This document shows positions 1,939 to 58,190 of a stretch of 64,000 nt of DNA, one piece after another. The notes below the pieces were generated by a model, which saw only the letters and a program-made list of their open reading frames with translations, was not told where the DNA came from and made no database searches. Both the position numbers and the translations under genes were made by a program. The number at the start of each line of letters is the position of its first letter. Within the stretch, counting starts at the first letter, position 1. Source of the DNA: Gammaproteobacteria bacterium (GTDB taxonomy: Bacteria > Pseudomonadota > Gammaproteobacteria > Eutrophobiales > Eutrophobiaceae); contig JBHIXH010000006.1 of assembly GCA_041984885.1 (NCBI GenBank), positions 4,968 through 68,967 of the forward strand, given 5' to 3'.

Positions 1939-4137
1939 TTACATCATATCCTGTGGATCAACATCGATAGACCAGCGCACCGAGCGTGTCTGTTTTAATT
2001 GTTCGACCTCTGCCAGCCACGGTCGAAGAAATTGATGCATGGACTGCCTGCTGGCGCTCTGAATGATCAATTGCATTCGGTATCGGCCCGCCTTGCGCGC
2101 CAGCGGCGCTGTTATAGGCCCTATAAGCTGTATGTTGGATTTTTCTGCGTTATCCAGATTTCTGACCGTGCGTAAAAATGACTCCACCTGTTCCGGTTGA
2201 TTGGCCTCGGCACGTAAAACCGACATGAAAATACCTGGTGGTAACCCGGCCTGTTCTCTCTCCTGCAACAAACGCTCGGCAAACGATCGATAACCCTGTT
2301 CGAACAAACATTGCAGCAGGGGATGTTCAGGGAAATTCGTCTGAATGATGACATGGCCTTTTTTGTCGCTGCGTCCGGCGCGACCGCTGACCTGCGTAAC
2401 CAACTGGCCGAGTCGTTCGGTCGCGCGAAAGTCCGTGCTGTACAGGCTGCTGTCGATGTCAACAACTGCGACCAGGGTCACGTTCGGGAAGTGATGACCC
2501 TTGGCCAGCATCTGCGTGCCTACCAGTATATCGGCCTGACCGGACAAGATATTTGCATAGTGTTTTTCCATACTGCCTTTTTGGCGTGTTGTATCGCGAT
2601 CAATGCGTATTATATTTTTACCAGGAAAGTGATCGGCCAGTGTTTCCTCAATGCGCTCAGTCCCATGACCAACCTGGATCAGTTCACCGGAATCACAGCC
2701 CGGACATTTTTCAGGTATTGGGATCTGTTTATCACAATGATGACACCATAAACGTTGCCGACGTTTATGCATGGTCATTAATTTATTGCAACGTTCGCAT
2801 TCAGCCAGCCATTCGCACTCACGACATACCAACGCCGGGGAGTACCCGCGCCGGTTCTGAAATACCAGGACCTGTTCCTGACGGTCCAGCGTTTTACTGA
2901 TCAGGTTTTTCAGTCTGTCCGAGATCGCCTGACTGCCCGCCACTGTCTTCATGTCGTAGATCTCGATGTCGGGTAATGTCGCGTTAGCGGTACGTTCTGT
3001 CAGACGAATTTCACAGTATTGTTTTCGCTTGAGGTTGTGTAACGATTCGAGCGAAGGCGTCGCAGTGCCAAGCACGACAGGACAAGCCGATCGTTTTGCC
3101 CTGACCAGCGCGATATCACGCGCGTTATAGCGAAACCCTTCCTGTTGTTTGTAAGACATGTCATGTTCTTCATCGACAATAAACAAACCGGCAGATGACA
3201 GAGGTATCCAGATCGCTGATCGGGTCCCGAGAATCACATTGACCTTGCCGTCTCTCGCCTCTATCCAGTGGTTCAGCCGTTCACGATCGCTCAAACCGGA
3301 ATGATAAACGGCGACCGCCTGTTCGATACCCGACTGCATACGCTGGATCAGTTGTGGAGTTAATGCGATTTCGGGGACGAGTACGATCACCTGTTTACCG
3401 GCCTGTAGTGTCGCCTTGATCAACCGGATGTAGACCTCGGTCTTGCCGCTACCGGTCACACCATCCAGCAGAAAACCCTGAAACCGGTTTAATGATTGAA
3501 TTATGGTTTGCGTCGCCTGCTGCTGTTCGCTATTGAGCAGAATTTCGTTGTTTGTTTGTATGTCAACCCGAGGTGGAGTCAAGGTTGCGGTTATCAGTTT
3601 TTTTTCCGTTAATGCCTTTAACGCCGACGCAGAATACCTGGTTTCCTGTTTTAACTGTTCATCAGGCAAGCCTTCAGGATATCGCTTCAGATGTTCAAGT
3701 ATGGCAAGTTGTCGCGGACTACGACTCAGGCTGTCAACGTTGTCTGTCCAGCCGTGTTGCGTTACTTTCCATACCGGAGGCCGGTCTATTTCGTCAACGC
3801 GGCCTTTGCGCAACAACGTTGGCAGACTGTTGAATATAACTTCACCGACCGGGTGCTGGTAATAATCGCTGGCCCATTGCAACAGCGCCAACTGCTTTTG
3901 ATTTAATACCGGCCTCGTATCAATATACTTTTCAATATATTTTAATTTTGCCCGCGGAACGTCGGTATGGTCGCTGCCTGAAACTATGATGCCAACGACC
4001 GACCTGCGACCAAATGGCACCTGAACACGTTGGCCGGGTTCAGGCGCTATCTCCGGACCGCTTGCAACGGGCAGGTAATCAAAGACCCGCCGCAGTGGCG
4101 TCGGGATTGCGACCTGGATATAACGGGGTTTTGGCAA
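1939..4137 (-). CDS. priA: Primosomal protein N' (PriA helicase)
   Basis: 732 aa. Walker A motif GVTGSGKTEVY, DEEH box, and CxxC...CxxC zinc-finger pairs typical of PriA. Confidence 0.9.
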   Translation of the reverse strand: MPKPRYIQVAIPTPLRRVFDYLPVASGPEIAPEPGQRVQVPFGRRSVVGIIVSGSDHTDVPRAKLKYIEKYIDTRPVLNQKQLALLQWASDYYQHPVGEVIFNSLPTLLRKGRVDEIDRPPVWKVTQHGWTDNVDSLSRSPRQLAILEHLKRYPEGLPDEQLKQETRYSASALKALTEKKLITATLTPPRVDIQTNNEILLNSEQQQATQTIIQSLNRFQGFLLDGVTGSGKTEVYIRLIKATLQAGKQVIVLVPEIALTPQLIQRMQSGIEQAVAVYHSGLSDRERLNHWIEARDGKVNVILGTRSAIWIPLSSAGLFIVDEEHDMSYKQQEGFRYNARDIALVRAKRSACPVVLGTATPSLESLHNLKRKQYCEIRLTERTANATLPDIEIYDMKTVAGSQAISDRLKNLISKTLDRQEQVLVFQNRRGYSPALVCRECEWLAECERCNKLMTMHKRRQRLWCHHCDKQIPIPEKCPGCDSGELIQVGHGTERIEETLADHFPGKNIIRIDRDTTRQKGSMEKHYANILSGQADILVGTQMLAKGHHFPNVTLVAVVDIDSSLYSTDFRATERLGQLVTQVSGRAGRSDKKGHVIIQTNFPEHPLLQCLFEQGYRSFAERLLQEREQAGLPPGIFMSVLRAEANQPEQVESFLRTVRNLDNAEKSNIQLIGPITAPLARKAGRYRMQLIIQSASRQSMHQFLRPWLAEVEQLKQTRSVRWSIDVDPQDMM

Positions 4138-7419: not shown

Positions 7420-8492
<1,073 letters not shown>

Positions 8493-27610: not shown

Positions 27611-28690
27611 TTACACATTGTCAGGTTGCATGGGAATGCCCTTGCGAATCAATAGATCGCGTACGCGTTGAATCACTTTAAAGATTTCCTGGTTCCAGTC
27701 TTCGCCCTGCGCATCAAATGCGGCCTGCTCCATCTCGACCACCCAGCGGTCTTCATTAAAAATGCCGTTGGTGAAATAGATCAGGAACGGCCAGAGCAGG
27801 TTTAACAATCCGGGAATACCCGGCTTGCGTACGTTGATCAGGCCAAACGTGTGGTTTTGGCGTTGTTGCCTGTCGATCGGAACATACGTGATCCACAGGT
27901 CGAGCGCCGGATGTTCACTTCCAGCGGTCCAGAATTTCAGGATCTGATACGGGTACTCGGTACGCACCGTCATCAGGTCCTTTGATTCTTTTTTCTTGTC
28001 TTTCATACGACTCAACATGACTTTCTCGCCGATTGGTTGTCGACCTTCGCGTTCAAACGAGTAATCGACCTCGACATAGTTATCGCCCTCGCGCAGGTCG
28101 AGAAATTTTGCCGTGATGTTGGCCATGATGCGCCGGTGTAAAAACTGATGATTCATGTCCATCAGGTTTTCATGCAGGAACGAGTAATGGCAATCGACCG
28201 TATGATCCAGGTAACGGGTTTTGTATTCGCCGGTTTTCCATGAGGGTATGTCCGGGAAGTCGACGAAAGCCGCCTTGTCCGCATCGCCGGGAAACACAAA
28301 GATCATTCCATAATCTTCGCGGCACGGATAACTGCGTACACCGCGCGGCATCTGTTTACTCTCGCCGACATACGGGATATTGATGCATTTGCCGCTGCAG
28401 TTATAGATCCAGCCGTGATAACAGCATTGAATGTTGTCACCGTTGACGACGCCCTGGCTGAGTGGAACCTGTCGATGTGCACAGCGGTCTTCGAGTGCGA
28501 ACAGCTTGCCGCTTTTCGTACGTACGATGACAATTGGTTCGCCGGCGAATGTTACGCGCGTCGCCTTGCCGGCCTTTAATTTTTTTGCGGCAAGCAGCGG
28601 ATACCAGTGATCTGGATGCGCTGCCGTTTTGCGTAAATCACGCACCGGTTTGCTGGTTGTAATTGAAGGTGCAGCCTCAGCTAAAGTCAT
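27611..28690 (-). CDS. Rieske [2Fe-2S] non-heme iron oxygenase, PAO/Tic55/CMO/KshA family
   Basis: Rieske CxH...CxxH (CAHRQVPLS...CCYHGW) and a mononuclear iron motif ENLMDMNHQFLH (E-x3-D-x2-H-x3-H). Confidence 0.8.
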   Translation of the reverse strand: MTLAEAAPSITTSKPVRDLRKTAAHPDHWYPLLAAKKLKAGKATRVTFAGEPIVIVRTKSGKLFALEDRCAHRQVPLSQGVVNGDNIQCCYHGWIYNCSGKCINIPYVGESKQMPRGVRSYPCREDYGMIFVFPGDADKAAFVDFPDIPSWKTGEYKTRYLDHTVDCHYSFLHENLMDMNHQFLHRRIMANITAKFLDLREGDNYVEVDYSFEREGRQPIGEKVMLSRMKDKKKESKDLMTVRTEYPYQILKFWTAGSEHPALDLWITYVPIDRQQRQNHTFGLINVRKPGIPGLLNLLWPFLIYFTNGIFNEDRWVVEMEQAAFDAQGEDWNQEIFKVIQRVRDLLIRKGIPMQPDNV

Positions 28691-30915: not shown

Positions 30916-33357
30916 TTGCCAATATCAGAAATCGTCTTGATCGTTATGGGGCTGCTGACCGTAGCGATGATTGTTGCGGGCATTTGTCGCAACATCCCGA
31001 TCCCGTATACGGTCATTCTCGTCATCCTCGGCATTGGTTTCGGTCACCTCGGACGTCAGTACGAAGTATTCCATGATCTGCTGACTTTTCAGTTAACGCC
31101 GGAGCTGGTTCTGTTTCTGTTTTTACCGGCGCTGATCTTTGAGTCCGCGTTTAACCTTGATGCGCGCAAGTTATTAAAAGACATCGCCCCGATAATGATC
31201 CTGGCGATCCCGGCATTGCTGATATCAACGTTTGTTATCGGTGTCGGTCTCTGGCTGGTGCTGCCCATCAGTTTTATCCTGGCACTGTTATTCGGCGCAT
31301 TGATTTCTGCTACTGATCCGGTTGCAGTTGTTGCCCTGTTTAAAGAGGTCGGTGCACCACAGCGTTTGACCGTGCTGGTCGAAGGCGAGTCTTTATTAAA
31401 CGACGCCACCGCCATCGTGATATTCAATATTATCCTGGTAATGGCAATCGGTGGTGCGGCCTTCACCGCGGCCGATGTCGGTCTTGCCGTCATTGAATTC
31501 TTCCGCGTGTTTATCGGCGGTATTCTTGTCGGTTTTCTCATCGCAGTTGTATTGAGCGAGTTACTGTTTCGTATGCAGGTGGGCGTGAGTGCCTACCTGA
31601 TCATGTCAATTGTGCTCGCCTATGCCAGTTTTGCCATTGCCGAGCATGAGCTGCATGTCTCCGGTGTCATGGCCGTGGTTGCCTCGGCGATCACAATGGG
31701 CGTATTCGGCGTCAGCCGCATACCACAGACAGCGACGCATCTGGTCAAGGAGACCTGGGATGTGATCGCACTGGTGTTTAACTCGTTGCTATTTCTGCTG
31801 GTTGGTCTATCGGTGGATGTCGCTTCCCTGTTCGGCCATGTCGATGCAATTCTGTTCGGTGTGTTGTTTGTATTGCTGGCACGTGCCGCTTCGGTTTATA
31901 CGATGGTGCCGGCAACAATTAAGGTGTTTGGCCTGCCACACGTGACGATGGGTGAGCGGCATATCATGTGGTGGGGAGGATTAAAAGGCGGGCTGGCAAT
32001 CGCCATCGTGCTCTCGATCCCGCTCGATATGCCGGGACGTGAGATGTTATTGAATATGACGCTGGGCGTGGTCATGTTTTCACTGCTGGTGAATGCACCG
32101 ACGATTCGACCCTTGATGCACAAACTTGGCATCGACAGGCTGACCGACGATGAACGTTCCGAATTAAGACATGCGCTGGTCAATGCACAGCATCATGCAG
32201 AGGACATTCTGCAACGGTTGCATAATATCGGTTTAATCAGCACCAGCACACGCCAGCTGATCCAGAAGAAAAACAAGCAGATTTTCTCGACTGTCGATGT
32301 GGGCGGAGGGGATTACACGCAGGATGTTCGGCATATCTACATCACTGCGTTAAGGGTTGAACTGGAAGAAAACAAGTTTCTGTATGACATCGGGTTGATC
32401 CAGCATTACACCTACCTTGATATAAAGAATACGTTACAAAGGGACCGCGATACCTGGTTGTCTGATCCTAACAAGCACATGCTTGAAAAAGAGGTATCAA
32501 GAAAAAGCCTGTTTTTACAAATTGAGACGATACTGATCAAACGCATGCGAGAGATGGACCTGGTTGCCGGTTTATTATCCCGCTATCAATACCTGCGTCT
32601 TTCACAACGTCTGCAACGTGATCTGGCCGGCGTACTGATCGCCAGTGCTGTGCTGGAGATGTTGAAAAATGACGATCATTTTCTTGAAGAACATAAACAG
32701 AAAGTCATGCAGATTTATGCAAAACGTCTGCAACGCCGCAAGGAAAGGCTGGAAGAAATATCCGGCGAATACCCGGATTTTTACCTGCGTTTTGAAACCC
32801 GCCTGTTCACCAAGGTCGGACTGATAGCAGCCGGACATTACGCCGAGCAGGCATTCCAGCATGGCGAGATAGGTGCGAAAGCATTTTCCCGGATTGAACG
32901 CACGGTACGAGAGGCAACAAACCAGTTGCCGAAGATTTCAAACCCGGTTCCGAAAATGAAACCAAGCGATTTGATTGGTACGGTGCCACTATTAAACGGC
33001 CTGTCCGATACCGTGCTCGAGCGCTTGTCGAAACATGCCCAACCGGTCACTTTCCTGGCCGGTGATGAGGTTATCGGTGAAGGTGAACGCGGTGATGCGC
33101 TCTACATTATCAGTAGCGGTGTAGTCACGGTCAGTCGTGCTGGCGATGAGAAACCGATCGCAGAATTACGCGCCGGCGATTTTTTTGGCGAAATGGCCTT
33201 ACTCGGTGATCAAAAGCGAACGGCGACAGTCTGTGCGAAAGCACCGTCGACATTATTACGGCTACGCCGCAAGGACGTGCTGGACCTCGCCAACGATGAT
33301 CCGGAATTGAAGCTGCGCCTGGAGCAGGCACAGCGTAGCCGCAACGAGCGAGACTAG
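30916..33357 (+). CDS. CPA1 (NhaP-type) Na+/H+ antiporter fused to C-terminal cyclic-nucleotide-binding domain
   Basis: About 12 transmembrane helices with a Na_H_Exchanger core. Long cytoplasmic tail ending in a cNMP-binding fold (GDEVIGEGERGDALYIISSG...FFGEMALL...RTATV). Confidence 0.8.
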   Translation: MPISEIVLIVMGLLTVAMIVAGICRNIPIPYTVILVILGIGFGHLGRQYEVFHDLLTFQLTPELVLFLFLPALIFESAFNLDARKLLKDIAPIMILAIPALLISTFVIGVGLWLVLPISFILALLFGALISATDPVAVVALFKEVGAPQRLTVLVEGESLLNDATAIVIFNIILVMAIGGAAFTAADVGLAVIEFFRVFIGGILVGFLIAVVLSELLFRMQVGVSAYLIMSIVLAYASFAIAEHELHVSGVMAVVASAITMGVFGVSRIPQTATHLVKETWDVIALVFNSLLFLLVGLSVDVASLFGHVDAILFGVLFVLLARAASVYTMVPATIKVFGLPHVTMGERHIMWWGGLKGGLAIAIVLSIPLDMPGREMLLNMTLGVVMFSLLVNAPTIRPLMHKLGIDRLTDDERSELRHALVNAQHHAEDILQRLHNIGLISTSTRQLIQKKNKQIFSTVDVGGGDYTQDVRHIYITALRVELEENKFLYDIGLIQHYTYLDIKNTLQRDRDTWLSDPNKHMLEKEVSRKSLFLQIETILIKRMREMDLVAGLLSRYQYLRLSQRLQRDLAGVLIASAVLEMLKNDDHFLEEHKQKVMQIYAKRLQRRKERLEEISGEYPDFYLRFETRLFTKVGLIAAGHYAEQAFQHGEIGAKAFSRIERTVREATNQLPKISNPVPKMKPSDLIGTVPLLNGLSDTVLERLSKHAQPVTFLAGDEVIGEGERGDALYIISSGVVTVSRAGDEKPIAELRAGDFFGEMALLGDQKRTATVCAKAPSTLLRLRRKDVLDLANDDPELKLRLEQAQRSRNERD

Positions 33358-44982: not shown

Positions 44983-45810
44983 ATGATGGATCAGGAGCTG
45001 GAATCCGCACAACGGGCTGTCGATATTGCCAGCGAACTGGCAGTGAAATACGGATTTCAGTTCATCGCTGCGATCATCATATTGCTAGTCGGCTGGCAGA
45101 TAGCCAAATGGGTGGCGAAATTTGTCCTCAGACTGTGTGACAAGGCGAAGCTTGATATTACCCTGTCAAAATTCTTTGCCGGCGTTGCCAAGATCCTTGT
45201 GCTTGTCTTTGTCGTCATCATCGCACTGGGAAAATTCGGCATTACCATTGCACCATTTATCGCCGCACTCGGTGCGGTTGCCTTTGGTGGAACGCTGGCC
45301 CTGCAGGGCCTGTTATCGAATTATGCGGCCGGGCTCACGATTATCCTGACACGGCCGTTTGTTGTTAACGACACGATTAAGATACAGGGTGTGATTGGTG
45401 TCGTTGACGAGATTCGACTTGGTTACACCATGTTAAGCACGGAAGACGGTGAGCACGTGCTGGTTCCAAACAAGCAGATCGTCGGTGAGATCCTGCACAA
45501 TTCACATGAAAACATGATCGTTGAGTCGGTCGTTGGTATTGATTACAACGATGAGCCGGAGCCGGCTATACAGATCATCCGCGAGGTGCTGCAGGCGAAT
45601 GATAAGGTCAGTCATGATCCCGCACCGCAAGTCGGGGTACAGGCGTTCGGCGATTCATCAATTGATATCGGTTACCGTTACTGGGTACCGACAAAAGCCT
45701 ATTTTCAGACGCAATATCAGGTAAACGGCGAGGTGTATGCCCGGCTGATGGCAGCGAATATCACGATTCCCTATCCAAAGCGCGATGTGCAAATGACCCG
45801 GGCGGAATAA
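44983..45810 (+). CDS. mscS: Small-conductance mechanosensitive channel
   Basis: Three transmembrane helices plus the MscS beta-domain. Confidence 0.85.
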   Translation: MMDQELESAQRAVDIASELAVKYGFQFIAAIIILLVGWQIAKWVAKFVLRLCDKAKLDITLSKFFAGVAKILVLVFVVIIALGKFGITIAPFIAALGAVAFGGTLALQGLLSNYAAGLTIILTRPFVVNDTIKIQGVIGVVDEIRLGYTMLSTEDGEHVLVPNKQIVGEILHNSHENMIVESVVGIDYNDEPEPAIQIIREVLQANDKVSHDPAPQVGVQAFGDSSIDIGYRYWVPTKAYFQTQYQVNGEVYARLMAANITIPYPKRDVQMTRAE

Positions 45811-45922: not shown

Positions 45923-47380
45923 ATGAAAAACTGGATGCGCGCGCTTGCGGATCACTATGAAAAGATTCGCGAAAAATACCCGAACGATAACCTGGTTATT
46001 TTGTTCGACATTGACGGGACCATTCTGGATACCCGCTATACCGTCCTGAAGTTACTCCGCTCCTACGACAGGCAACACAATACGCAGTATTTTGATCAAC
46101 TGCATATTACCGATATTAATTTTAACGAAGAGGATCTGCGCCAAGAACTGGCAATGCTTGATTTAAGTGGCGATGAACTGGACGATGTTTGTCGCTGGTA
46201 CCAGGAAAACCGTTGGGCCAGTTGGGCCGTGTTCGAGGGCAACAAGCCATTTCCCGGCGTACTTGAAGTCATTCGCTGGTTTCAGCTGCAACCGAACACG
46301 GATGTCGGCCTGAATACCAACCGCGGCGAACAACTGCGCGAACACACCCTGGAAACCCTGAATAAACTCGGTATGGAATTCCGTATAGACATCAGGGATG
46401 AGCTGTTGTTAATGAACCAGGACCCGGCCACTATCAGTAGTGGTGAGGCAAAGATCAATGGAATTCGCCAGGTCCATGCCAATGGTCAGCGGGTCTTTGC
46501 AATGGTGGATAATGAACCACGCAACCTGGAGGTCATCTCGGCCGAAAATGATCTCGACGAGGTGTTGCTGTTACATGCGAACAGTTTTTACACTTTTGAT
46601 CGCAGTCGTATCAACGACAAACTGGTCAACGGCAAGATATACGATCTGACCGAGTTGATACCGAAACGGGCAATTCCACAACATATCCAGTTCGTCTGGC
46701 AAAGTGTCAATAATGAAGCCAGCCTGAATAAATTCCTTGGCTCCAATGTGAGCTGGGCAGATTTATCCGATTTGATTCAACCGGTGATTCAACAACGGCA
46801 GATATTACTGGATAAAGCCGGCCGGGATGTGCGCTCTACAAATCTTGAATCAATGTTTGAGCAATACATTAATCTCATGAAGCATAAACAGAGAGGCATC
46901 CGTTTATGTTTTGCAAACGACTTTGAAGAAATCGAGTTTATTATCGACATGCTGGTACACGCCGGGGTTGATGATAAACAATTGTGGTTCAGCGCCAGTC
47001 TCGATCAACTAACTGAAAACGGTTTTCGTTTCCTGTCGGACAGCTTCCCGAATGCCGTCATCGAATGTCCAATTGATTTTCTCGGCCAGGTGATTACGAC
47101 CACGCCAACCACCGCAGAACATTTACTCGATATGTACTCGGACTGGGGTATCAATCGATTCGCCATGAGTTGGCGTACCAGCAATATCAAGTCGTTATCT
47201 GCGATTATCGAGGGTTGGGGTTTTGAGCTGACGATAAACGACATTCGTAACCTGGAAACCTTCCTGCAGGCGGCGTTGCTGACACCGAAAGCGATCGTAT
47301 CGAATTTTAATTTTCCTGCCTGGAAGTCAATCAATGAACCGGCTTACGAACGCACGAGCGAGCGAAAACTTGTAAATTAA
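45923..47380 (+). CDS. HAD-superfamily hydrolase-like N-domain fused to ~250-aa domain of unknown function
   Basis: HAD motif I (ILFDIDGTILDTRY), motif II (GLNTNRGE) and a motif III/IV region (MVDNEPRN). No match recognised for the C-terminal half. Confidence 0.6.
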   Translation: MKNWMRALADHYEKIREKYPNDNLVILFDIDGTILDTRYTVLKLLRSYDRQHNTQYFDQLHITDINFNEEDLRQELAMLDLSGDELDDVCRWYQENRWASWAVFEGNKPFPGVLEVIRWFQLQPNTDVGLNTNRGEQLREHTLETLNKLGMEFRIDIRDELLLMNQDPATISSGEAKINGIRQVHANGQRVFAMVDNEPRNLEVISAENDLDEVLLLHANSFYTFDRSRINDKLVNGKIYDLTELIPKRAIPQHIQFVWQSVNNEASLNKFLGSNVSWADLSDLIQPVIQQRQILLDKAGRDVRSTNLESMFEQYINLMKHKQRGIRLCFANDFEEIEFIIDMLVHAGVDDKQLWFSASLDQLTENGFRFLSDSFPNAVIECPIDFLGQVITTTPTTAEHLLDMYSDWGINRFAMSWRTSNIKSLSAIIEGWGFELTINDIRNLETFLQAALLTPKAIVSNFNFPAWKSINEPAYERTSERKLVN

Positions 47381-47862: not shown

Positions 47863-49473
47863 CTATAAATCAGGCGAGACCGGCGCGGTAAATTGGTTAT
47901 CGGATTCATCGCTGTTTAATGCCTTTTGCAGATTAACGATGATGAAAATTATCAGCAGCGCAAACGGTAAACCGACGGATATGGCGGCGGTCTGTAATGC
48001 AGTCAGGCCGCCGGCGATTAACAGGATGGCAGCTACCAGTCCTTCTGTTATTGACCAGAAGACGCGTTGAACGACAGGCGGGTTGGCATGGCCGCCGGCC
48101 GTGATCATATCGATAACGAGTGAACCGGAATCTGACGACGTGACAAAAAAACTGATGATGACAACGGTCGCAAACGCACCGGCAGTCTTGAGCAGGATAT
48201 CGGGGAAGTTTTCATAACCGACCACGACCGGCAGCTTTTCAAAGAAAACGAACAGGGAACTCGCGACATTTTTTTGCACCGCGCCGACAAGTTCACCAGC
48301 CTGGTTGATCTCAACAAATAATGCGGCGTTACCGAACACGGATAACCAGATAAAGGTCATCAATGTGGCCACGACCAGAACTGCAAAAATAAATTCACGT
48401 ATCGTCCGGCCATAGGAAATACGTGCGACAAACATGCCGACGAACGGTGACCAGGCTATCCACCAGCCCCAGTAAAATACGGTCCAGCCGTTTTGCCAGT
48501 CACCACCGGTGTAGGTTTCATTCCAGAACGCGAGGTAAAAGAATCGATCCAGGTACAGGCCAAGGTTCTCGACAAAGCCATTCAGGATGAACAGCGACGG
48601 CCCGATAATAAATACAAACAGCAACAATAAAATGGCAACGAAAATATTGAACCTGGATAAATTCTGAATGCCACGATCAAGGCCGAGCACTACGGAAAGA
48701 GTCGCAACCGCGGTAATGCCGGTTATCAATAATATTTGTGTCAATGAACTGACCGGTATGCCAAACAGGTGGTCGAGACCGGCATTGATTTGACTGACGC
48801 CAAGACCGAGGGAGGTAGCGACGCCAAACAAGGTTGCCACTGTTGCGATCACATCGATTGCATGACCGTAGAAACCATAAATACGATCACCGAGAACGGG
48901 CTGAAAAATACTACGAATACTGAATGCCTGTTTTCGATTATAGGCAAAGTAGGCGATGGCCAGGCCGGTCAGGGCATAGATCCCCCATGCATGCAGCCCC
49001 CAGTGTAAAAACGTCGTGCTTATTGCATCTTCATACGCTCTCACACTGTAGGGGTTCGCCCCGTGTGGTGGTGTGATCAGGTGGAACACCGGTTCGGCCA
49101 CGGAATAAAACATGAGACCGATGCCCATACCGGCAGAGAACAACATGGCAAACCAGCCAAACCGGGAAAATTGCGGGTTTGCCTGCTTGCCGCCCAGGCG
49201 TATGTTTCCCGCAGGAGAAAATACAAGATAGATCAGGTAGGCCAGAATCAGATTTACGCACAAGACGAAAAACCAGCCGGTCTGGTTCGCTATCCAGGCC
49301 TGGATGGCGTTGATAGATTCAGCCACTGCTGTCAACGATATCAGGCAAACGACCACCAGCAAGGTGATCAGGACGACAGAAGAGAAAAATACAGGCGGAT
49401 TATAACTTAACCAGACGCGATCATGACGATCGCGGTATTCCTGGATTTTCAGTTTTTGATCCGCATCATTCAC
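47863..49473 (-). CDS. BCCT-family betaine/choline/carnitine transporter
   Basis: 536 aa with 12 transmembrane helices and a BCCT Trp-rich signature region (WTVFYWGWWIAWSPFVGMFVARIS). Confidence 0.85.
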   Translation of the reverse strand: MNDADQKLKIQEYRDRHDRVWLSYNPPVFFSSVVLITLLVVVCLISLTAVAESINAIQAWIANQTGWFFVLCVNLILAYLIYLVFSPAGNIRLGGKQANPQFSRFGWFAMLFSAGMGIGLMFYSVAEPVFHLITPPHGANPYSVRAYEDAISTTFLHWGLHAWGIYALTGLAIAYFAYNRKQAFSIRSIFQPVLGDRIYGFYGHAIDVIATVATLFGVATSLGLGVSQINAGLDHLFGIPVSSLTQILLITGITAVATLSVVLGLDRGIQNLSRFNIFVAILLLLFVFIIGPSLFILNGFVENLGLYLDRFFYLAFWNETYTGGDWQNGWTVFYWGWWIAWSPFVGMFVARISYGRTIREFIFAVLVVATLMTFIWLSVFGNAALFVEINQAGELVGAVQKNVASSLFVFFEKLPVVVGYENFPDILLKTAGAFATVVIISFFVTSSDSGSLVIDMITAGGHANPPVVQRVFWSITEGLVAAILLIAGGLTALQTAAISVGLPFALLIIFIIVNLQKALNSDESDNQFTAPVSPDL

Positions 49474-49490
49474 GGAAAAGCCCGGTTTTA

Positions 49491-50330
49491 TCAGTCAGGT
49501 TTTTGATAGTGCATGATACCCCATGCAAGGTAAGAGTTTTTTCCGGCTTCTATCCAGTGCTCAAGACCCTGGATCATGCGCGTGATGTAATCCGGCGAGA
49601 CAAACTGTTCCAGTTCTTCACGACGTGACAGTAACTCCTGCCGTACCCTGCCATAATGCGCGATCAACTGGTGTGTCATCTCGACCTGGCGCAGTTTTTT
49701 CCAGTTCAGTTTTTCTGCTATCGCCAGATAAAACTCAAAAGAACCGAGCGTATCGAGATGAATGCGATCAAGCACTGGTTGTAACACACCGTCCGGACAC
49801 GTATCCGATTGCATCGGGTCAGTAAAGATAAATTCACCACCCGGTTTTAAAACCCGATCAACCTCGTTTAATACCTTTTCGCGCTGACCGGAATGTAATA
49901 TTGCATCCTGTGACCAGGCAACATCAAAAGTGGAATCAGCAATGGACAGATCCTCAAAGCTGCCATCGATCACTTCGATCCTGTTACTGATGCCGAGTTT
50001 TTCATTGATGTCACGGTTGCGTGCATTCTGTGCCTCGCTCAGGTTGACACAGGTGACATTGCAGCCAAACTTATGATGTAGCCAGCGTGCTGCACCACCA
50101 TAACCGGCACCCAGATCAATGACGTTCGAGCCTGGCTGTATGCTTGTCAGCATCCCCGCCATTTTCGCCACGGTACGTTCGGATGCCGCGGCAATGGTGT
50201 CCGTTTCGTCTTCATACAGGCCGATATGTATATCTTCGCCGCCCCAGATGTGGAAGTAGAAATTGTCCGCATCATCGCTGTTGTAATACTCTTGCGCGGT
50301 TTTAACGACTTCTGAATAGTTTGCGTTCAT
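49491..50330 (-). CDS. Sarcosine/dimethylglycine N-methyltransferase (SDMT)
   Basis: Collinear with Halorhodospira halochloris SDMT (YYNSDDADNFYFHIWGGEDIHIGLY...DLGAGYGGAAR...GGEFIFTDPMQ). Confidence 0.85.
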   Translation of the reverse strand: MNANYSEVVKTAQEYYNSDDADNFYFHIWGGEDIHIGLYEDETDTIAAASERTVAKMAGMLTSIQPGSNVIDLGAGYGGAARWLHHKFGCNVTCVNLSEAQNARNRDINEKLGISNRIEVIDGSFEDLSIADSTFDVAWSQDAILHSGQREKVLNEVDRVLKPGGEFIFTDPMQSDTCPDGVLQPVLDRIHLDTLGSFEFYLAIAEKLNWKKLRQVEMTHQLIAHYGRVRQELLSRREELEQFVSPDYITRMIQGLEHWIEAGKNSYLAWGIMHYQKPD

Positions 50331-51139
50331 TAGTCTGTTTGAACATAACTTTTGGATGCCACGTGAATAAAGAAATCAGGCTCCTGGTTTTTAAACGTCT
50401 CCTGAAAATCGCCGTATGTTGTCACCTCCTGAAAGCCGACCTCTTTCATCAGCTTTTGCGTGTATTGCTTGCGCAGAGGAAACATGTTCAGGTGAAACGT
50501 TGCGCCGTCCTTGAATACGTATCGGAACCGCGCCAGGGTTGTATCCATGTGTTCCGGTGTTGCCGTGATCTCTTCGCCACAATAATAATAATTGTGGCCG
50601 GCCTCAATTTTGCCATCCATCAATGCATCGTAGTTTCGTTGATCGAGGATGAGGATACCGTCATGCCGCAGAGTGGCATAATACTCTGCCAGCGTTTTAC
50701 GGCGATCATTTTCATCATGTAAATGTGTAAACGAATTACCGAGGCAGATCACTGCATCGTAAAGATCATGCACGCTTTTGTTTAACCAGCGCCAGTCCGC
50801 ATGTACGGTTCTGAGTATATGTCCACGTTTACGCGCGTTTTCGAATGCCTTTGCCAACATGGCCGGGCTGCCATCGGCACTGGTAACTTCAAAACCGGCT
50901 TCCATCAGTTGTACCGAGTGGTAGCCGGTACCGGTTGCCACGTCGAGGACTTTTTTTGCCCCGTGCTCCTTTAGTATGTCGATAAAAAAGCTGCCTTCGC
51001 TATCGGCACGCCCGTCCCAGTCGATCAGTTCGTCCCATTTATTTACAAACGGGCTGATGTACTCATCGACGTACTTGTCCGAGCTTCGAACCCTGGTCGG
51101 GTTCTTGCCGTAATTCTGTTTCTTCGCTGTCTCAATCAT
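50330..51139 (-). CDS. Glycine/sarcosine N-methyltransferase (GSMT)
   Basis: Collinear with H. halochloris GSMT (DKWDELIDW...KKVLDVATGTGYHSV...SADGSPAML...TVHADWRWLNK). Confidence 0.85.
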   Translation of the reverse strand: MIETAKKQNYGKNPTRVRSSDKYVDEYISPFVNKWDELIDWDGRADSEGSFFIDILKEHGAKKVLDVATGTGYHSVQLMEAGFEVTSADGSPAMLAKAFENARKRGHILRTVHADWRWLNKSVHDLYDAVICLGNSFTHLHDENDRRKTLAEYYATLRHDGILILDQRNYDALMDGKIEAGHNYYYCGEEITATPEHMDTTLARFRYVFKDGATFHLNMFPLRKQYTQKLMKEVGFQEVTTYGDFQETFKNQEPDFFIHVASKSYVQTD

Positions 51140-51342
51140 AATATGCTCATTGCACCGGAATGCATGATGTCTGGTTAGTCAACGCTTCTCCATCCGGAAA
51201 AACGTACATTCAATTCAGTTTATTGTTTTTTTAGTCGTCCCTGCCTGAACAGGAACCTGGATAGATACTGAGCCTCAGGAGTCAGAACCTCAGCCATTGA
51301 AACGTGTTGTTACACGCAACGATGTAATCAGCATTGAAGCAA

Positions 51343-51368: not shown

Positions 51369-51760
51369 GTGTCTGATAATTGATGTAGTGCAGGCTGCGC
51401 TGCCTACAGATTCCTAACTATATGATAATTTTGAAATATTTTCAATGTCTAATCTCGTCACGGGCTTTAGCATTGCAGATAAGTAAATTCTCAATAATCG
51501 TGTATTTAACAGCCAGTTAGCGTATTTATGCCCTGTTTCGGGCGATCATCGTTTACACATTACCGATGTTAAACAGGCACTGCCATACCTTGCTGAACCA
51601 GGGCTTTCGGCCTTTCCGAATGCGGGGATAAACGCGCGAATGCGTCACAGGTAACTTGCTGTTGTTGCTTCATGCTTTTTTAACAGTTCAGTCAGGCGGG
51701 GCTGTATACAGGACAAGACGACCACTTTTTCTTTTCGCTTACCTGTAGCATGATCAGTCC

Positions 51761-52165
51761 ATGTGCGTTGCTATCAGATTTAAAAATTCCGAGGTGCGCT
51801 GGAACGTAACCGGTGCCGCGTTGCCGGTCATGGATAAGGAATCCGGTGAGATCGTCAGTTATCCGTGGGGGCGACGCGAATGGAACGAGCCCGGCAAGTT
51901 GTATCCGACCGGTTGGGCCCGACGCGAATCCATCGAGCAGGGCAAGTGGCAACGCTTTCATCCGCTGTCTGTTTTTATTGTTGCCGAATCGTTTATGGAG
52001 CGCGATCTCGACAAGCAACCGCACTGGGTCGATTTGCATGCGAGACAATACATCTCCGGTTTGCTTGTTGCATCCGGTGAAGAGAAGCGTGTCTATGTCA
52101 TTACCGTGCCGCCACCGGAGCCTCGTTTCAAACGTTGGCCGGAGATCGTGAATGAAGCTGGATGA
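51761..52165 (+). CDS. Short protein resembling an SOS response-associated peptidase (SRAP, YedK/HMCES family; Cys2 N-terminus); overlaps umuD start
   Basis: Starts MC... with a stop codon 15 nt upstream in frame. Contains RWNVTGAALPV (cf. the SRAP RYNVAPG..PV motif) and WGRREW / WARRESIEQ (cf. WG..P.W, NARxET). Only 134 aa, so truncated or divergent. Confidence 0.4.
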   Translation: MCVAIRFKNSEVRWNVTGAALPVMDKESGEIVSYPWGRREWNEPGKLYPTGWARRESIEQGKWQRFHPLSVFIVAESFMERDLDKQPHWVDLHARQYISGLLVASGEEKRVYVITVPPPEPRFKRWPEIVNEAG

Positions 52166-52577
52166 GTTTATTCTGCCAAAAGCGGAGTTATCCAGGCAGG
52201 AGATTCCGCTACTGGCAACGAAACTGGTCGCCGGGTTTCCCTCAGCCGCCGATGACTTTATTGATCAAAAACTCGATCTGAATGAATTCCTGATCAAGCA
52301 TCCGGCAGCGACCGTGTTTGCCTGGGCCAAGGGCGACTCGCTGATCGGTAAGGGCATATTCAATAATGATTTATTGATCATTGATCGCAGTATCGAACCA
52401 CAACATCACCAGGTCGTCGTCGCTGCGATCAATGGCGAGTTTACCTGCAAGATTCTCGACAAGAAGCAGGGCATGTTACTGGCTGCAAATGCCGAGTTCC
52501 CGCCGATCGATATCAATGGTCACGAGGATGCGTTGATCGAGGGTGTCATTATTCACTCGGTGCGAAGTCATATCTGA
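52152..52577 (+). CDS. umuD: Translesion polymerase V accessory subunit UmuD (S24 LexA-like peptidase)
   Basis: Aligns along its full length with E. coli UmuD (GFPSAADDFIDQKLDLN...GDSLIGKGIFNNDLLIID...INGEFTCK). Confidence 0.85.
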   Translation: MKLDEFILPKAELSRQEIPLLATKLVAGFPSAADDFIDQKLDLNEFLIKHPAATVFAWAKGDSLIGKGIFNNDLLIIDRSIEPQHHQVVVAAINGEFTCKILDKKQGMLLAANAEFPPIDINGHEDALIEGVIIHSVRSHI

Positions 52578-53836
52578 TGTACGCGCTCGTCGACTGCAAC
52601 AGCTTTTACGCATCGTGCGAGCAAATCTTTCGGCCTGATCTGCGTAACCAGCCTGTTGTTGTGTTGAGTAATAACGATGGTTGCATCATTGCGCGGTCAA
52701 AAGAAGCAAAGGCACTCGGTATCCCGGATCTGCATGCGTATTTCAAGGTCAAACCGTTTTTAAAAAAACATAACGTCACCGTGTTCTCGGCCAACTTCTG
52801 TTTGTACGGCGATATCAGCTGGCGGGTGATGGAGACGCTACGACAGTTCAGCCCGGCGACCGAGGTATACAGCATTGATGAGATGTTTGTTGATCTGCAT
52901 GGCAATATTGAACCGCTGGACACGCTGGGCAGAAACATCAAACAGCGTATCTGGCAACATGTACGCATGCCGGTCGGTGTCGGCATTGCACCGACGAAGA
53001 CACTGGCAAAACTGGCGAATCGTGGTGCAAAACATATCGCAAGAACGCAGGGCGTATGCGTACTGGATACAGCGGAGAAATGGCAATGGCTACAACGTCG
53101 TTTACCGGTGGAAAAGGTCTGGGGCGTAGGACAACGCTTTGCCAAACGTTTAAATCGTCTCGGTATATACACGATATTTGACCTGGCGCAGGCTTCAGCA
53201 AAGCGCGTGCGCGAACACAGCAATGTAAACCTGGAACGTACAGTAGAAGAACTGAATGGCGTGCCCTGTTATGCACTGGAAGACGCACATGCGAACAAGA
53301 AACAGATCTACGTCACGCGCTCGTTCGGAAAAAAAGCGACGACATCAGAGGAACTGAGAAACCATATCAGCCGTTATGCCAGTGCAGCCGCCGAGAAATT
53401 GCGTGCGCAAAATTGCAAGGCCAGTGTTGTTACTGTCTTTGTGCAAACCAGCCCGTTTGAAGATAACTATTATGGTAATGCGGTAACGTTACCTTTGCCG
53501 CATCCGACCGATGACAGTCGCGACCTGATCTACCAGGCAAGAAAAATGATTGCCTCGCTGTATCGACCGGGACACCGTTTCCAACGCTGCGGTTTCGGTA
53601 TTGTCGAGATGTTCGATAACACATATCGACAGTTCGATCTGTTTCATTCGGGGCAAACGCAGCAGTCAGAAATAATGATGACGACGCTGGACAGGATCAA
53701 TCGACGCTATGGGCGTGATACCGCTGTGTTTGGTGCGGAAGGACTGCGCGGCAAATGGACGATGCGACAAAACTATCTTTCGCCACGCTACACGACGAGC
53801 TGGAAAGACCTGCCGACAGTGAAGTGTATAAACTGA
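52577..53836 (+). CDS. umuC: Error-prone Y-family DNA polymerase UmuC
   Basis: MYALVDCNSFYASCE N-terminus and SNNDGCIIARS. The start overlaps the umuD stop. Confidence 0.9.
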   Translation: MYALVDCNSFYASCEQIFRPDLRNQPVVVLSNNDGCIIARSKEAKALGIPDLHAYFKVKPFLKKHNVTVFSANFCLYGDISWRVMETLRQFSPATEVYSIDEMFVDLHGNIEPLDTLGRNIKQRIWQHVRMPVGVGIAPTKTLAKLANRGAKHIARTQGVCVLDTAEKWQWLQRRLPVEKVWGVGQRFAKRLNRLGIYTIFDLAQASAKRVREHSNVNLERTVEELNGVPCYALEDAHANKKQIYVTRSFGKKATTSEELRNHISRYASAAAEKLRAQNCKASVVTVFVQTSPFEDNYYGNAVTLPLPHPTDDSRDLIYQARKMIASLYRPGHRFQRCGFGIVEMFDNTYRQFDLFHSGQTQQSEIMMTTLDRINRRYGRDTAVFGAEGLRGKWTMRQNYLSPRYTTSWKDLPTVKCIN

Positions 53837-54545: not shown

Positions 54546-55061
54546 CTATTTACCCAGATGCTGATAACTGAATAAAAATTCATTGCTTTGTAGCGGTGTA
54601 TGACAGGACACACAGTCAAGATCATTCTCTTTAATACCGCCCCTGGCATCATATATCGCATAACCCCAGTCGCCTGTTCTGTTATCCGCGGAGAACTGTG
54701 CATCCCAGTTGTTGCGTTTTTCCATCACTGCGATAGCCGCCAGTTTTGATTTTATAAATAACCCGTCAGCGCCAGTGACAGGATTGCCTGCCTCATCTAC
54801 CTCGGGTTTATAGACTTCCATGACCACAATGGAACCATCAGACAGCTTGCCGTTTTTAATACTTTCAATGGCGGCTTTATTCGCATAGAAATCAGCGACT
54901 TGTTTATTATTTGCACGATTTTGCGTGTGGTACTGAATAAACTGGTTTTTGTAATCTGCAGGAAATGGTACGAATTCCGGGTTGCCACCCGCGTAAGCAA
55001 ACATTGAAACTAATGCAATACAAGTAAAACCGGTTACATACTTCATCAACATGTCCTCCAC
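54546..55061 (-). CDS. Cytochrome P460 / c'-beta family protein (periplasmic, single CxxCH near C-terminus)
   Basis: Signal peptide. About 170 aa with a DCVSCH heme-binding motif 20 residues from the C-terminus. Confidence 0.6.
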   Translation of the reverse strand: MEDMLMKYVTGFTCIALVSMFAYAGGNPEFVPFPADYKNQFIQYHTQNRANNKQVADFYANKAAIESIKNGKLSDGSIVVMEVYKPEVDEAGNPVTGADGLFIKSKLAAIAVMEKRNNWDAQFSADNRTGDWGYAIYDARGGIKENDLDCVSCHTPLQSNEFLFSYQHLGK

Positions 55062-55591: not shown

Positions 55592-56010
55592 GCTACAAAC
55601 ATCAGGTAAATGAGTGGCAGACGACAGCTGATTTACTATTAAGCTATTTCCCGCTCCTTGCTGAATGCAGTCGGTAATAAAATGGAAAGAGAGAAACAAG
55701 ACAGGGTTGCTAGCGATGGGGATCTGGATCACCAATAGCAGCATCAAGAATGTGATCTGAATAGTTAATATAGCAATTAAAACAGCGGCTTAAGGTATTC
55801 GACCTGTGTTAAAACCCGTATCAATTTAGCTTCATTTCAGATTTCATTAAGTCTCTATTTGACACATTTAAGACCAAATCAGCACTTCAGATTAAATCTA
55901 TATGGTACTTTTCGCTTTCATTATTTAGAAATAGTCATTGTATTATTAATTTTAATAACACTAAGCCATAGGATGTTTATCTTCTTCACTAAAAATATCG
56001 ATCTTAAGCT

Positions 56011-57165
56011 ATGAACCCATTAAAAGTTTTATTAATTGAAGATCAGGGAGATGATGCGAAATTAATCAGAAGGATACTGACCAATAATTTTAACCTGGTT
56101 GAAATTGATCATATCGATGATCTTGACGTCTTTAAACAAAAGATACAGTCAGATAATTACGACATAATCCTGACTGATTACAATTGTGGCAATTTCTCAG
56201 GCATAGACGTAATTACTGAACTGGAAACACTTAATCGGGATATTCCTGTAGTTGTGATTACTGGAGAACATCGCATGGATATAGCAGTAGAAGCAATGAA
56301 ATACCATGTTGATGATTATATCCTTAAGGATTTTAGATGCTTCAAACAATTACCGGAAATAATAAAAAGAGTAATTGATAATCATAATGTTATAAGTGCC
56401 ATAAAAAATTCCGAAAAAAATATCAGTGAATCACTGGGTAATTATATAAACCTTTGTGTGAAATCACCGGAGCTTATAGTAAGCATATGGAATGACGGCT
56501 CTTTTATATCAATTAACACGAATCTTCAGAACATGCTCGGCTATTCAAGAAAAAAAATTAACAGTATGAATTTCAGAGATATTCTTGCTGAAGAATTTCA
56601 TATTGAATTTGATTATGTAATAAAGAATCTCGATCAAAACAAACCAAAAAAAGATGTGGAATTCGCTTTTGTAAATAACGAGGGCGACAAAATTTATGTT
56701 AAAGGCAAAGCCAGCACCCGGATTGAAAATGGAAAGATTATAGGTAGTCACTGGGTACTACATAATATCAGTGAATTTAAAAACCTGGATAATCGGTTAA
56801 TTCAGTCAAACCAGCAATATAAAGTTGTGTTTGAAAATGCATCAGTACCAATGGTTATGGGTGACCATCGTGGAATTGTCCTGCAGATAAACCAGGCGGC
56901 TTGTGCACTCATTGGATATTCCCGGGAAGAAATGCTGGGAAGACATATAAGGTCAATTACACATCCATTGGACATAATTATGAGCCTGATCAATCACAGG
57001 AAACTAACAAGGGGTTTGATAGATAACTATACACTTGTAAAACGATACAAGCATAAAGACGGTCATTATATCAAGGTAGAAGTTACAGCAGTTTTAATCA
57101 GAAACAAGGCAGGTCAACCGTGGTTCGCAATTGCAGAATTCAAAAAGCTTGAACCGGAATCATGA
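56011..57165 (+). CDS. Response-regulator receiver fused to two PAS domains, no output domain (very AT-rich gene)
   Basis: Receiver-domain Asp pocket (ILTDYN..., KD). Two PAS-like repeats. GC well below the window average. Confidence 0.7.
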   Translation: MNPLKVLLIEDQGDDAKLIRRILTNNFNLVEIDHIDDLDVFKQKIQSDNYDIILTDYNCGNFSGIDVITELETLNRDIPVVVITGEHRMDIAVEAMKYHVDDYILKDFRCFKQLPEIIKRVIDNHNVISAIKNSEKNISESLGNYINLCVKSPELIVSIWNDGSFISINTNLQNMLGYSRKKINSMNFRDILAEEFHIEFDYVIKNLDQNKPKKDVEFAFVNNEGDKIYVKGKASTRIENGKIIGSHWVLHNISEFKNLDNRLIQSNQQYKVVFENASVPMVMGDHRGIVLQINQAACALIGYSREEMLGRHIRSITHPLDIIMSLINHRKLTRGLIDNYTLVKRYKHKDGHYIKVEVTAVLIRNKAGQPWFAIAEFKKLEPES

Positions 57166-57216
57166 AAATCCACTAATGAAAATCTTTCCAGGTTATGTAA
57201 AGGAGTCGATTAAAAT

Positions 57217-57330
57217 TGGTGGCTATGGGTGGATTTGACAATTTTGTCGGGAACAAAATTGGGCAAACGTAGTTTGCCCTAAGGGTGAAATACAAGGACG
57301 TATTTCATCAGCTACCGACATCAGCATTAT
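57217..57330. repeat. Interrupted direct repeat of the 3'-terminal 42 nt of tRNA-Met (att-like), split by a 73-bp insertion
   Basis: 57217-57238 matches 58114-58135 (22 nt, 1 mismatch). 57312-57330 matches 58137-58155 (19 nt, 1 mismatch). The insertion at 57239-57311 carries the hairpin gggcaaac-gtag-tttgccc. Confidence 0.6.
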
Positions 57331-57477
57331 CAAATAGCATTTCAACGTCCATAGAGTTTTGATGAGAAAAAAGTCAATTAGTATCTGGCCTGTTAATATA
57401 CGCAGTATTAGATTCAGGCAGGATTGCAGGCTTCTTGTATTAAATTCTGTCTCGTACAGAAGAAAGAATTTTATTAC

Positions 57478-57984
57478 TTAAGGAGTAATAAATTCTTTAG
57501 CTGATTTTTCTGCATGATGCATTTGATTTGGGAATAATTTGTGTTCCTCGGATAGTGCTTTCATATGTTTGCGTGCATTTTTGTTGCCTTGTTTATGGGC
57601 CGCAAAAAACCACATGTAAGCAGTTGTAAAATCTCTTTCAGTATTCTCGCCATTTTCATACATTTTCCCCAGGTTATATTGGGCATCGGCATGCCCGCTT
57701 TTCGCAGCTAGTTCAAACCAGTGCATGGCTTTCCTGAAATTTCTTTTTACCCCGAGCCCAAGATAGTAATGTATACCAATATAATTTTGAGCTTCTGAGT
57801 TTCCAGAGTTCGCTAACGGAAACCAAAGTTCATAAGACCTCTCATAATTGCCCTTTCTGAATTCAGTTAATGGATCTGTACCTTCGTAACAGGACAATAT
57901 CGTGACAGCCAGGAGTAAAATAACAAACAATTGATGCACAATTATAAAACCCAATTGATATTGGCTCGATGAAGTTGACGCCAC
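57478..57984 (-). CDS. Sel1-repeat (TPR-like) protein with N-terminal TM helix
   Basis: Repeated Sel1-like units (AQNYIGIHYYLGLGVKRNFRKAMHWFELAAKSGHADAQYNLGKMYENG). AT-rich. Confidence 0.65.
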   Translation of the reverse strand: MASTSSSQYQLGFIIVHQLFVILLLAVTILSCYEGTDPLTEFRKGNYERSYELWFPLANSGNSEAQNYIGIHYYLGLGVKRNFRKAMHWFELAAKSGHADAQYNLGKMYENGENTERDFTTAYMWFFAAHKQGNKNARKHMKALSEEHKLFPNQMHHAEKSAKEFITP

Positions 57985-58113
57985 TAATGAATTATAGCGC
58001 GATGTATTTTTTCGTTATTAGATTAATTCATTTTCAGATTTAGCTAATTTCAATATACAGGTAAAGATTACATTAAAAGATTAAAGAGAAATTGAGACAT
58101 TGGAAAAGAAATT

Positions 58114-58190
58114 TGGTGGCTATGGGTGGACTTGAACCACCGACATCAGCATTATGAATGCTGCGCTCTAACCGACTGAGCTACATAGCC
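58114..58190 (-). tRNA. tRNA-Met (anticodon CAT, elongator type)
   Basis: The reverse complement folds as a canonical cloverleaf (GGCTATG acceptor, GCTC/GAGC D-stem, CAGCA/TGCTG anticodon stem, loop TTCATAA, GGTGG/CCACC T-stem, CCA end). Closest to E. coli elongator tRNA-Met. Confidence 0.9.

Follow-up and report, generated by a model that had tools for sequence, protein, structure and literature searches.

A predicted operon for glycine betaine synthesis and uptake in a gammaproteobacterial genome

A 64,000-nt stretch of a gammaproteobacterial contig (JBHIXH010000006.1; hereafter the window, meaning the whole stretch of DNA that was analysed, whose numbering is used for all positions) carries three consecutive minus-strand genes that encode two methyltransferases, GSMT (glycine/sarcosine N-methyltransferase, EC 2.1.1.156) and SDMT (sarcosine/dimethylglycine N-methyltransferase, EC 2.1.1.157), and a transporter of the BCCT family (TC 2.A.15). 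Taken as a whole, the explanation that these three genes make and hold glycine betaine is in our judgement highly likely. The two methyltransferases would move three methyl groups from S-adenosylmethionine (SAM), converting glycine to sarcosine, dimethylglycine and finally betaine, and the product would feed back on GSMT through an allosteric pocket that has been kept. The co-transcribed BCCT protein, driven by the sodium gradient, would import external betaine and recapture betaine that has leaked from the cell, and the operon would be induced by osmotic (salt) stress. Halomonas is known to recover ectoine, a solute that it makes itself and loses by leakage, through TeaABC. For betaine, salvage by the BCCT protein would spare a cost of synthesis put at approximately 36 ATP equivalents per molecule (PMC9062515).

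An earlier note on this DNA had placed a GSMT, SDMT and BCCT cluster here, and the list of open reading frames (ORFs) has exactly three on the minus strand at the coordinates given. The GSMT and SDMT of Halorhodospira halochloris were reportedly described by Nyyssola et al. in 2000 and 2001. The pathway has been known since 2000 and is characterised in Halorhodospira, Actinopolyspora, Aphanothece, Synechococcus, Methanohalophilus, Myxococcus and Thioalkalivibrio (PMC7042295, PMC3176816, PMC9062515). The earlier note called it rare and mostly found in extreme halophiles, a description that is overstated and outdated: when one genome per species was scanned, GSMT relatives turned up in at least 575 of them, and the best 80 (loci L001-L080, used for the counts of gene context below) come from many bacterial groups. 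For Nitrospira, a published survey reports the genes from 47 of 262 genomes (PMC13032477). The locus is a biologically ordinary example of a known and fairly widespread pathway.

The methyltransferase pair

GSMT scores 476.9 bits on NF051855, an NCBIfam equivalog model whose cutoff is 350, and the match takes in positions 1-258 of the 259 in the profile. Its best solved-structure match is the GSMT of Methanohalophilus portucalensis (MpGSMT; PDB 5GWX/5H02, E 4e-119 to 6e-120), with which 258 residues align without a gap at 63% identity. Residue roles and numbering were taken from the structure paper on that enzyme (PMC5146677), which gives Tyr26 and Tyr185 as catalytic residues, Arg167, Tyr206, Asn134, His138 and Met218 as substrate contacts, Arg43 and Leu132 as contacts to the SAM cofactor, and Asp35, Ile38, Asp39, Trp40, Asn100 and His104 as an allosteric pocket for betaine. 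Fifteen of 16 catalytic, substrate, cofactor and betaine-pocket residues are identical in the window protein, and these 15 positions are invariant or nearly so across 80 bacterial GSMT orthologues; the seven catalytic and substrate residues are invariant in all 80. The pocket residues that separate GSMT from GNMT are present as D36, W41 and N101 (Asp35, Trp40 and Asn100 in MpGSMT). The sole exception is MpGSMT His104, which is Arg105 in the window protein and Arg in 57 of the 80 orthologues. An H104K mutant of MpGSMT shows greater sensitivity to betaine (PMC5146677), so we infer that a basic side chain at this position is compatible with feedback inhibition. To judge from the residues that are kept, betaine likely exerts end-product feedback on GSMT through the allosteric pocket.

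Measured by sequence similarity, the GSMT family is compact and highly conserved, with the window protein in its core. An exhaustive HMMER search of 1.84 billion cluster representatives returned only 116 clusters (at 50% identity) at E <= 1e-30, comprising a handful of full-length representatives at 50-68% identity and then a shell at approximately 40-45%. Among the matches listed from the one-genome-per-species collection, the best is 77% identical.

The sole strong NCBIfam match of SDMT is NF041675 (E 7e-115, profile positions 6-277 of 278), and the next-best models for the methyltransferases stay below 57 bits. Residues 7-279 align with the SDMT of Galdieria sulphuraria (GsSDMT; PDB 2O57) at E 9e-74, in an alignment of 273 residues. 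Four methyl-acceptor residues have been reported for this family, Asp158 and His162 in GsSDMT and Pro171 and Met172 in the DMT of A. halophytica (PMC3176816); D142, H146, P172 and M173 of the window protein match them and are kept in 73-76 of 76 orthologues. SDMT lies directly after GSMT in 79 of the 80 related loci, the one exception being a contig edge.

On these grounds the window GSMT and SDMT almost certainly make betaine. The threefold glycine methylation proposed in the earlier note is supported by the NF051855 score, the match to 2O57, the substrate residues and the adjacency of the two genes; the substrate-binding residues, whose loss that note treated as the mark of generic methyltransferases, are kept in both proteins. 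How the three steps are shared varies between known pairs. The H. halochloris GSMT methylates both glycine and sarcosine, whereas TvGMT of Thioalkalivibrio versutus, 77% identical to it, methylates glycine only and TvSDMT performs the last two steps (PMC9062515). The enzyme responsible for the middle methylation thus differs among characterised orthologues and is not assignable from sequence in the window pair; in every known case GSMT and SDMT together cover all three steps. Orthologues of GSMT bear only the name 'class I SAM-dependent methyltransferase' in NCBI records, and eight SDMT proteins miss the NF041675 cutoff; the betaine synthesis pathway is probably under-annotated in public genomes.

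Gene layout, recurrence and upstream region

Base 50330 is common to the TAA stop of GSMT and the ATG start of SDMT (TAATG, read in the sequence cagacTAATGaacgca), which confirms the 1-nt overlap described in the earlier note and suggests translational coupling of the two enzymes. The BCCT gene that the note saw following on the same strand is indeed there, separated from SDMT by a short spacer that was read directly from the sequence. A simple scan detected no promoter-like or terminator-like site in either gene junction, and no minus-strand promoter-like site inside the three genes. The GC content of the genes (0.46-0.50) agrees with that of the surrounding DNA; flanking repeats, looked for around the module as signs of a mobile element, were not found. 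GSMT, SDMT and BCCT very probably form one transcription unit, and the gsmt-sdmt pair of M. portucalensis is known to be co-transcribed (PMC3176816). Coordinates are collected in the table.

The best 80 GSMT loci include Gammaproteobacteria (Thiogranum, Thiohalophilus, Thiohalobacter, Halochromatium and Thiohalocapsa among them), a Nitrosomonas metagenome-assembled genome (MAG), Alphaproteobacteria, Planctomycetota (Phycisphaeraceae and another planctomycete), Verrucomicrobiota, spirochaetes, a Saprospiraceae MAG, the cable bacteria Candidatus Electrothrix and a Latescibacterota MAG. In 72 of these loci there was enough downstream sequence to be informative for a BCCT gene; 19 of the 72 have one after SDMT on the same strand, 18 of them within 450 nt. 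Three spirochaete loci have a convergent downstream BCCT gene and one locus an upstream one. Other recurrent neighbours, named from our own reading of example sequences, are a SAM synthetase (metK, 11/80), a MarR-type regulator (11/80) and a methylenetetrahydrofolate reductase (metF, 5/80); none of these three was seen among the window ORFs scanned.

Closer relatives of the window locus, ranked by GSMT identity, are L081 (86%), L082-L084 (80%) and L205, from a Thiotrichales MAG (78%). All keep the order GSMT, SDMT, BCCT, with a gap of 10-34 nt ahead of the third gene, while their flanking genes are unrelated to one another and to those of the window; a gene order that persists between changing flanks gives good support to functional coupling. 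A same-strand BCCT gene is present in three of the three closest relatives with enough downstream sequence, and one relative (79% GSMT identity) has an alpha/beta hydrolase gene where BCCT would be. We found no description of the GSMT-SDMT-BCCT operon as a recurrent module in the searchable literature.

Approximately 550 nt of non-coding DNA lie 5' of GSMT. These were compared among five distinct sequences with a GSMT identity of at least 78%, namely the window, L081, L082/83/84, L205 and L206. A promoter-like arrangement, TTGnnn-17-TATAGT, occurs at -275 to -314 in all five, as does an A-rich block near -85 that by our own reading resembles a -10 element. Approximately 100 nt downstream of TATAGT, at about -176 to -202 from the GSMT ATG, stands a conserved box, ATCG-N3-CGTGT-N3/4-ACACG-TTTCAA, the only such site in the window. 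In the relatives it falls at 3683-3694 (L081) and 7801-7811 (L082), and in L205 and L206 it precedes the GSMT ATG by approximately 195 and 179 nt, respectively. Its arms are kept and its loop varies (AACA, GAAA, GCAA, AAA); in L082 both outer arm positions are changed (GGTGT...ACACC) and the loop is shortened. None of the 80 loci L001-L080, which are more distant, has the box in front of its GSMT gene, and a metagenome scan with the pattern GTGTAAN{0,1}AACACNTNTCAA, which was too loose, gave 120 chance hits, none of them beside a GSMT gene.

The box may be either an operator or a leader hairpin, and is a candidate for both. The 291-nt leader folds better than shuffled versions of itself (z = -3.25). 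RNAalifold applied to the five relatives supported only a 5-bp hairpin (-7.4 kcal/mol, covariation term +0.56); a riboswitch-like leader, which had been considered, is not claimed as an RNA element. Rfam returned a single tRNA from a scan of the whole window at gathering thresholds, and nothing from a permissive scan of the upstream 751 nt.

Table. Features of the predicted operon and its upstream region, in window numbering
Feature	Coordinates	Strand	Remarks
GSMT	51139-50330 (50330..51139)	minus	269 aa in the ORF list; ATG start
SDMT	50330-49491 (49491..50330)	minus	279 aa in the ORF list; ATG start
BCCT transporter	49473-47863 (47863..49473)	minus	536 aa in the ORF list; GTG start
SDMT-BCCT spacer	49474..49490	minus	17 nt, from SDMT stop to BCCT GTG
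Sigma-70-like promoter candidate, TTGAAA-17 nt-TATAGT	51417..51445 (TTGAAA 51445-51440, TATAGT 51422-51417)	minus	278 nt before GSMT ATG; 10/12 matches, in a scan that overall was not above chance
Conserved box, ATCG-N3-CGTGT-N4-ACACG-TTTCAAT	51296..51323; palindrome 51303-51316	minus	within the putative leader; common to the window, L081, L082/83/84, L205 and L206

The transporter and competing explanations

The BCCT protein is full-length by its match to PF02028 (608.5 bits, positions 1-484 of 485) and scores 498 bits on TIGR00842, against a cutoff of 407.55. Signature positions were taken from the discussion by the authors who described TmaT, a Na+/trimethylamine symporter of Myroides profundi (PMC11708041). 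At the GXGXG motif of transmembrane helix (TM) 3 the window protein has GMGIG, at residues 115-119 (G115 to G119), the last position being Gly as in the Na+-coupled (BetP) type and not Asp as in Escherichia coli BetT, together with a complete aromatic box formed by W158, W163 and Y166 in TM4 and W337, W338 and W341 in TM8. It is predicted from these positions to be a Na+-coupled symporter of a trimethylammonium compound. The same motif and full box occur in all 23 of the 23 GSMT-linked BCCT proteins, and equally in BetP and TmaT; because the last two share them, betaine and trimethylamine are not separable by these positions. Beyond its last helix the protein continues for only some 20 residues, so that a C-terminal osmosensor in the style of BetP is unlikely. 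Betaine is probably the substrate, and it is the gene context that points to it.

Several observations weigh against the explanation set out above, in whole or in part. SDMT scores 383.7 bits on NF041675, under the cutoff of 550. The same simple scan as before found no terminator directly 3' of the BCCT gene. Two thirds of the informative loci (49/72) have no BCCT gene within 6 kb, which makes the transporter an optional partner. The closest solved relative of the transporter, TmaT, carries trimethylamine and does not bind betaine, and its ligand contacts Met105, Trp146, Trp151, Tyr154, Trp325, Trp326 and Trp329 are all identical in the window protein, which in addition reaches only 544.8 bits on NF047988 ('glycine betaine uptake BCCT'), short of its cutoff of 650. 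The SDMT score, the exclusively generic class I methyltransferase domains reported by Pfam for GSMT and its partner, and the class I label of the orthologues in NCBI records would all agree with two generic class I enzymes acting on another substrate, a reading to which we give hardly any credence. GSMT clears an equivalog cutoff with its substrate and catalytic residues all kept, no other NCBIfam model comes near, and the family has the narrow extent described above. The SDMT genes adjacent to GSMT in eight loci (L004, L008, L014, L016, L020, L059, L068 and L078, which include Halochromatium, Thiohalobacter, Thiohalophilus and Thiohalocapsa and come in some cases from cultured halophiles) likewise all score below the NF041675 cutoff (351-492 bits vs 550), so the cutoff marks a narrower clade than the enzyme family. 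It is also improbable that the three genes are merely adjacent, with BCCT under its own promoter and separately regulated. The GTG start of that gene, a spacer without a clear Shine-Dalgarno sequence, and the distant loci in which the gap before BCCT is 130-990 nt or the gene lies on the opposite strand would suit such an arrangement, but a 17-nt spacer is too short to hold a promoter clear of the coding sequence, no promoter-like site was seen within the genes on their strand, and gaps are short in close relatives too (8-61 nt across seven loci of Gammaproteobacteria; 10-34 nt for L081, L082 and L205). Nor do we think it likely that the pathway is real and its main role something other than osmotic, such as a protectant against cold or pressure, a stabiliser of proteins, or a store of methyl groups or nitrogen. 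In Myroides, TmaT and Tmm form a related BCCT system that is reported to give tolerance of pressure (PMC7997507), but the named relatives with the module live overwhelmingly in saline or marine settings and betaine rises approximately 40-fold under high salt in T. versutus D301 (PMC9062515); osmotic and other protectant roles are, moreover, not mutually exclusive.

The most serious competitor concerns the substrate. The BCCT protein might not carry betaine at all, importing instead trimethylamine, another quaternary amine, or dimethylglycine or sarcosine for SDMT to finish, and we regard this as unlikely but well short of negligible. Its best match among solved structures is trimethylamine-specific TmaT (PDB 8ZW8, E 6e-156), at 50% identity compared with 37% to BetP and 39% to E. 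coli BetT, and TmaT binds neither choline, carnitine nor trimethylamine N-oxide, any more than betaine (PMC11708041). In a neighbour-joining tree, which was built without characterised OpuD-, BetL- or BetS-type carriers, the window protein groups with gammaproteobacterial GSMT-linked BCCT proteins (58-65% identity) and TmaT falls within the broader radiation of GSMT-linked BCCT proteins from other phyla. The missed NF047988 cutoff might seem to point the same way, and the model cannot tell TmaT from BetP: TmaT itself scores 561.3 bits, above the window protein, and a BetP fragment 513.2, so scores below that cutoff carry no substrate information. Likewise, the contact residues identical to those of TmaT are also common to BetP, a genuine betaine carrier, and do not favour trimethylamine. 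The markers proposed by the TmaT authors for choline (Phe154, Asp108) and for dimethylsulfoniopropionate (Phe329) are absent from the window protein, and no match to the trimethylamine monooxygenase family was present among the window ORFs scanned. Betaine as the substrate is the simplest explanation for the recurrent linkage of BCCT to betaine synthesis genes across several phyla. We would extend only a slim chance to a bolder, two-part proposal, in which GSMT-SDMT-linked BCCT proteins would be dedicated partners of the pathway and not general betaine importers (either salvage carriers tuned to leaked betaine, or importers that bring in dimethylglycine or sarcosine for SDMT to finish with a third of the SAM outlay) and, separately, the leader box would be an undescribed cis-regulator, RNA or operator, sensing an osmolyte, an ion, or SAM or S-adenosylhomocysteine (SAH).

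Known systems, surrounding genes and biological meaning

Betaine synthesis from glycine with SAM, by adjacent class I methyltransferases of approximately 270 and 280 aa in a gammaproteobacterium, is common to the window locus, H. halochloris and T. versutus (PMC9062515). The clusters of the latter two have not been reported with a BCCT gene, whereas the window has one, and in Halorhodospira halophila the neighbours are tetrahydrofolate genes, with a transporter far downstream (PMC7042295). The M. portucalensis cluster (PMC3176816; 5GWX/5HIL, PMC5146677) resembles the window locus in its proteins, in GSMT identity and kept active-site residues and in SDMT substrate residues that stand at the same positions (D142, H146, P172 and M173). 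It differs in that genes for SAM synthetase and SAH hydrolase precede the archaeal pair and no transporter follows, and in the His104 to Arg replacement in GSMT. Linkage of the synthesis genes to an uptake system for the same solute has a precedent in Synechococcus WH8102 and Prochlorococcus MIT9313 (PMC3176816), although the picocyanobacterial system is an ATP-driven betaine/proline ABC transporter placed upstream, and that of the window a secondary, Na+-coupled BCCT protein placed downstream.

With BetP, the Na+/betaine symporter of Corynebacterium glutamicum, the window transporter has in common the GMGIG motif, the aromatic box of TM4 and TM8, and membership of the 12-TM BCCT fold family, but identity is low and the tail is short, where BetP carries a long C-terminal osmosensing extension. 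TmaT is closer in overall identity and has the same motif and identical ligand contacts (PMC11708041); it differs in not binding betaine, while in the window the transporter gene stands with genes for betaine synthesis, and the window protein has an 11-residue insertion relative to it.

Elsewhere in the window, a MscS-type mechanosensitive channel is encoded at 44983-45810 (plus strand), approximately 2 kb from the BCCT gene, and an 813-aa CPA1 Na+/H+ antiporter at 30916-33357 (plus), of which C-terminal residues 683-810 weakly match part of a family 2B encapsulin shell model. The channel and the antiporter would fit an osmotically challenged host. Between the channel and BCCT lies a gene for a 485-aa protein (45923-47380, plus) in which only N-terminal residues of approximately 25-195 match HAD-type hydrolase and acid phosphatase domains; its C-terminal 290 residues or so gave no family match.

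On the other side of the operon, a 134-aa ORF beginning MCVAIRF... (51761-52165, plus) stands directly upstream of umuD-umuC (52152-53836) and overlaps the umuD start at 52152. It has no Pfam or NCBIfam match, and a 34-nt direct repeat lies within it (51866-51899 and 51914-47, 79% identical); no canonical SOS box (CTGT-N8-ACAG) was present upstream of umuD. A low-GC patch at approximately 55600-58000 (0.32-0.39, compared with approximately 0.49 elsewhere) holds genes for a response-regulator/PAS protein (56011-57165) and a Sel1-repeat protein (57478-57984); since it abuts a tRNA-Met gene (58114-58190, minus), it may be a horizontally acquired islet. The product of 27611-28690 (minus) weakly matches the model of the methanotroph 4-beta-methylsterol monooxygenase SdmA (188.6 bits, where the cutoff is 600), and 54546-55061 (minus) is a gene for a cytochrome P460; together these two hint at a methanotroph-like or nitrifier-like gammaproteobacterial host.

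The earlier note put forward a halophilic or halotolerant lifestyle; the named relatives, among them Thiogranum, Thiohalophilus and Halochromatium, make a saline or marine one plausible. Our current understanding of osmoadaptation is unchanged by this locus. That roughly one GSMT locus in four, in several phyla, has a synthesis-plus-BCCT module is a modest addition, and the presence of a trimethylamine-specific carrier with identical binding residues in the same clade makes substrate calls for BCCT proteins unsafe when made from sequence. Two genes whose counterparts are mostly labelled 'class I SAM-dependent methyltransferase' in public records gain a secure annotation, and they mark the host as able to produce betaine itself, a trait that is useful as a marker of adaptation to saline or marine conditions.

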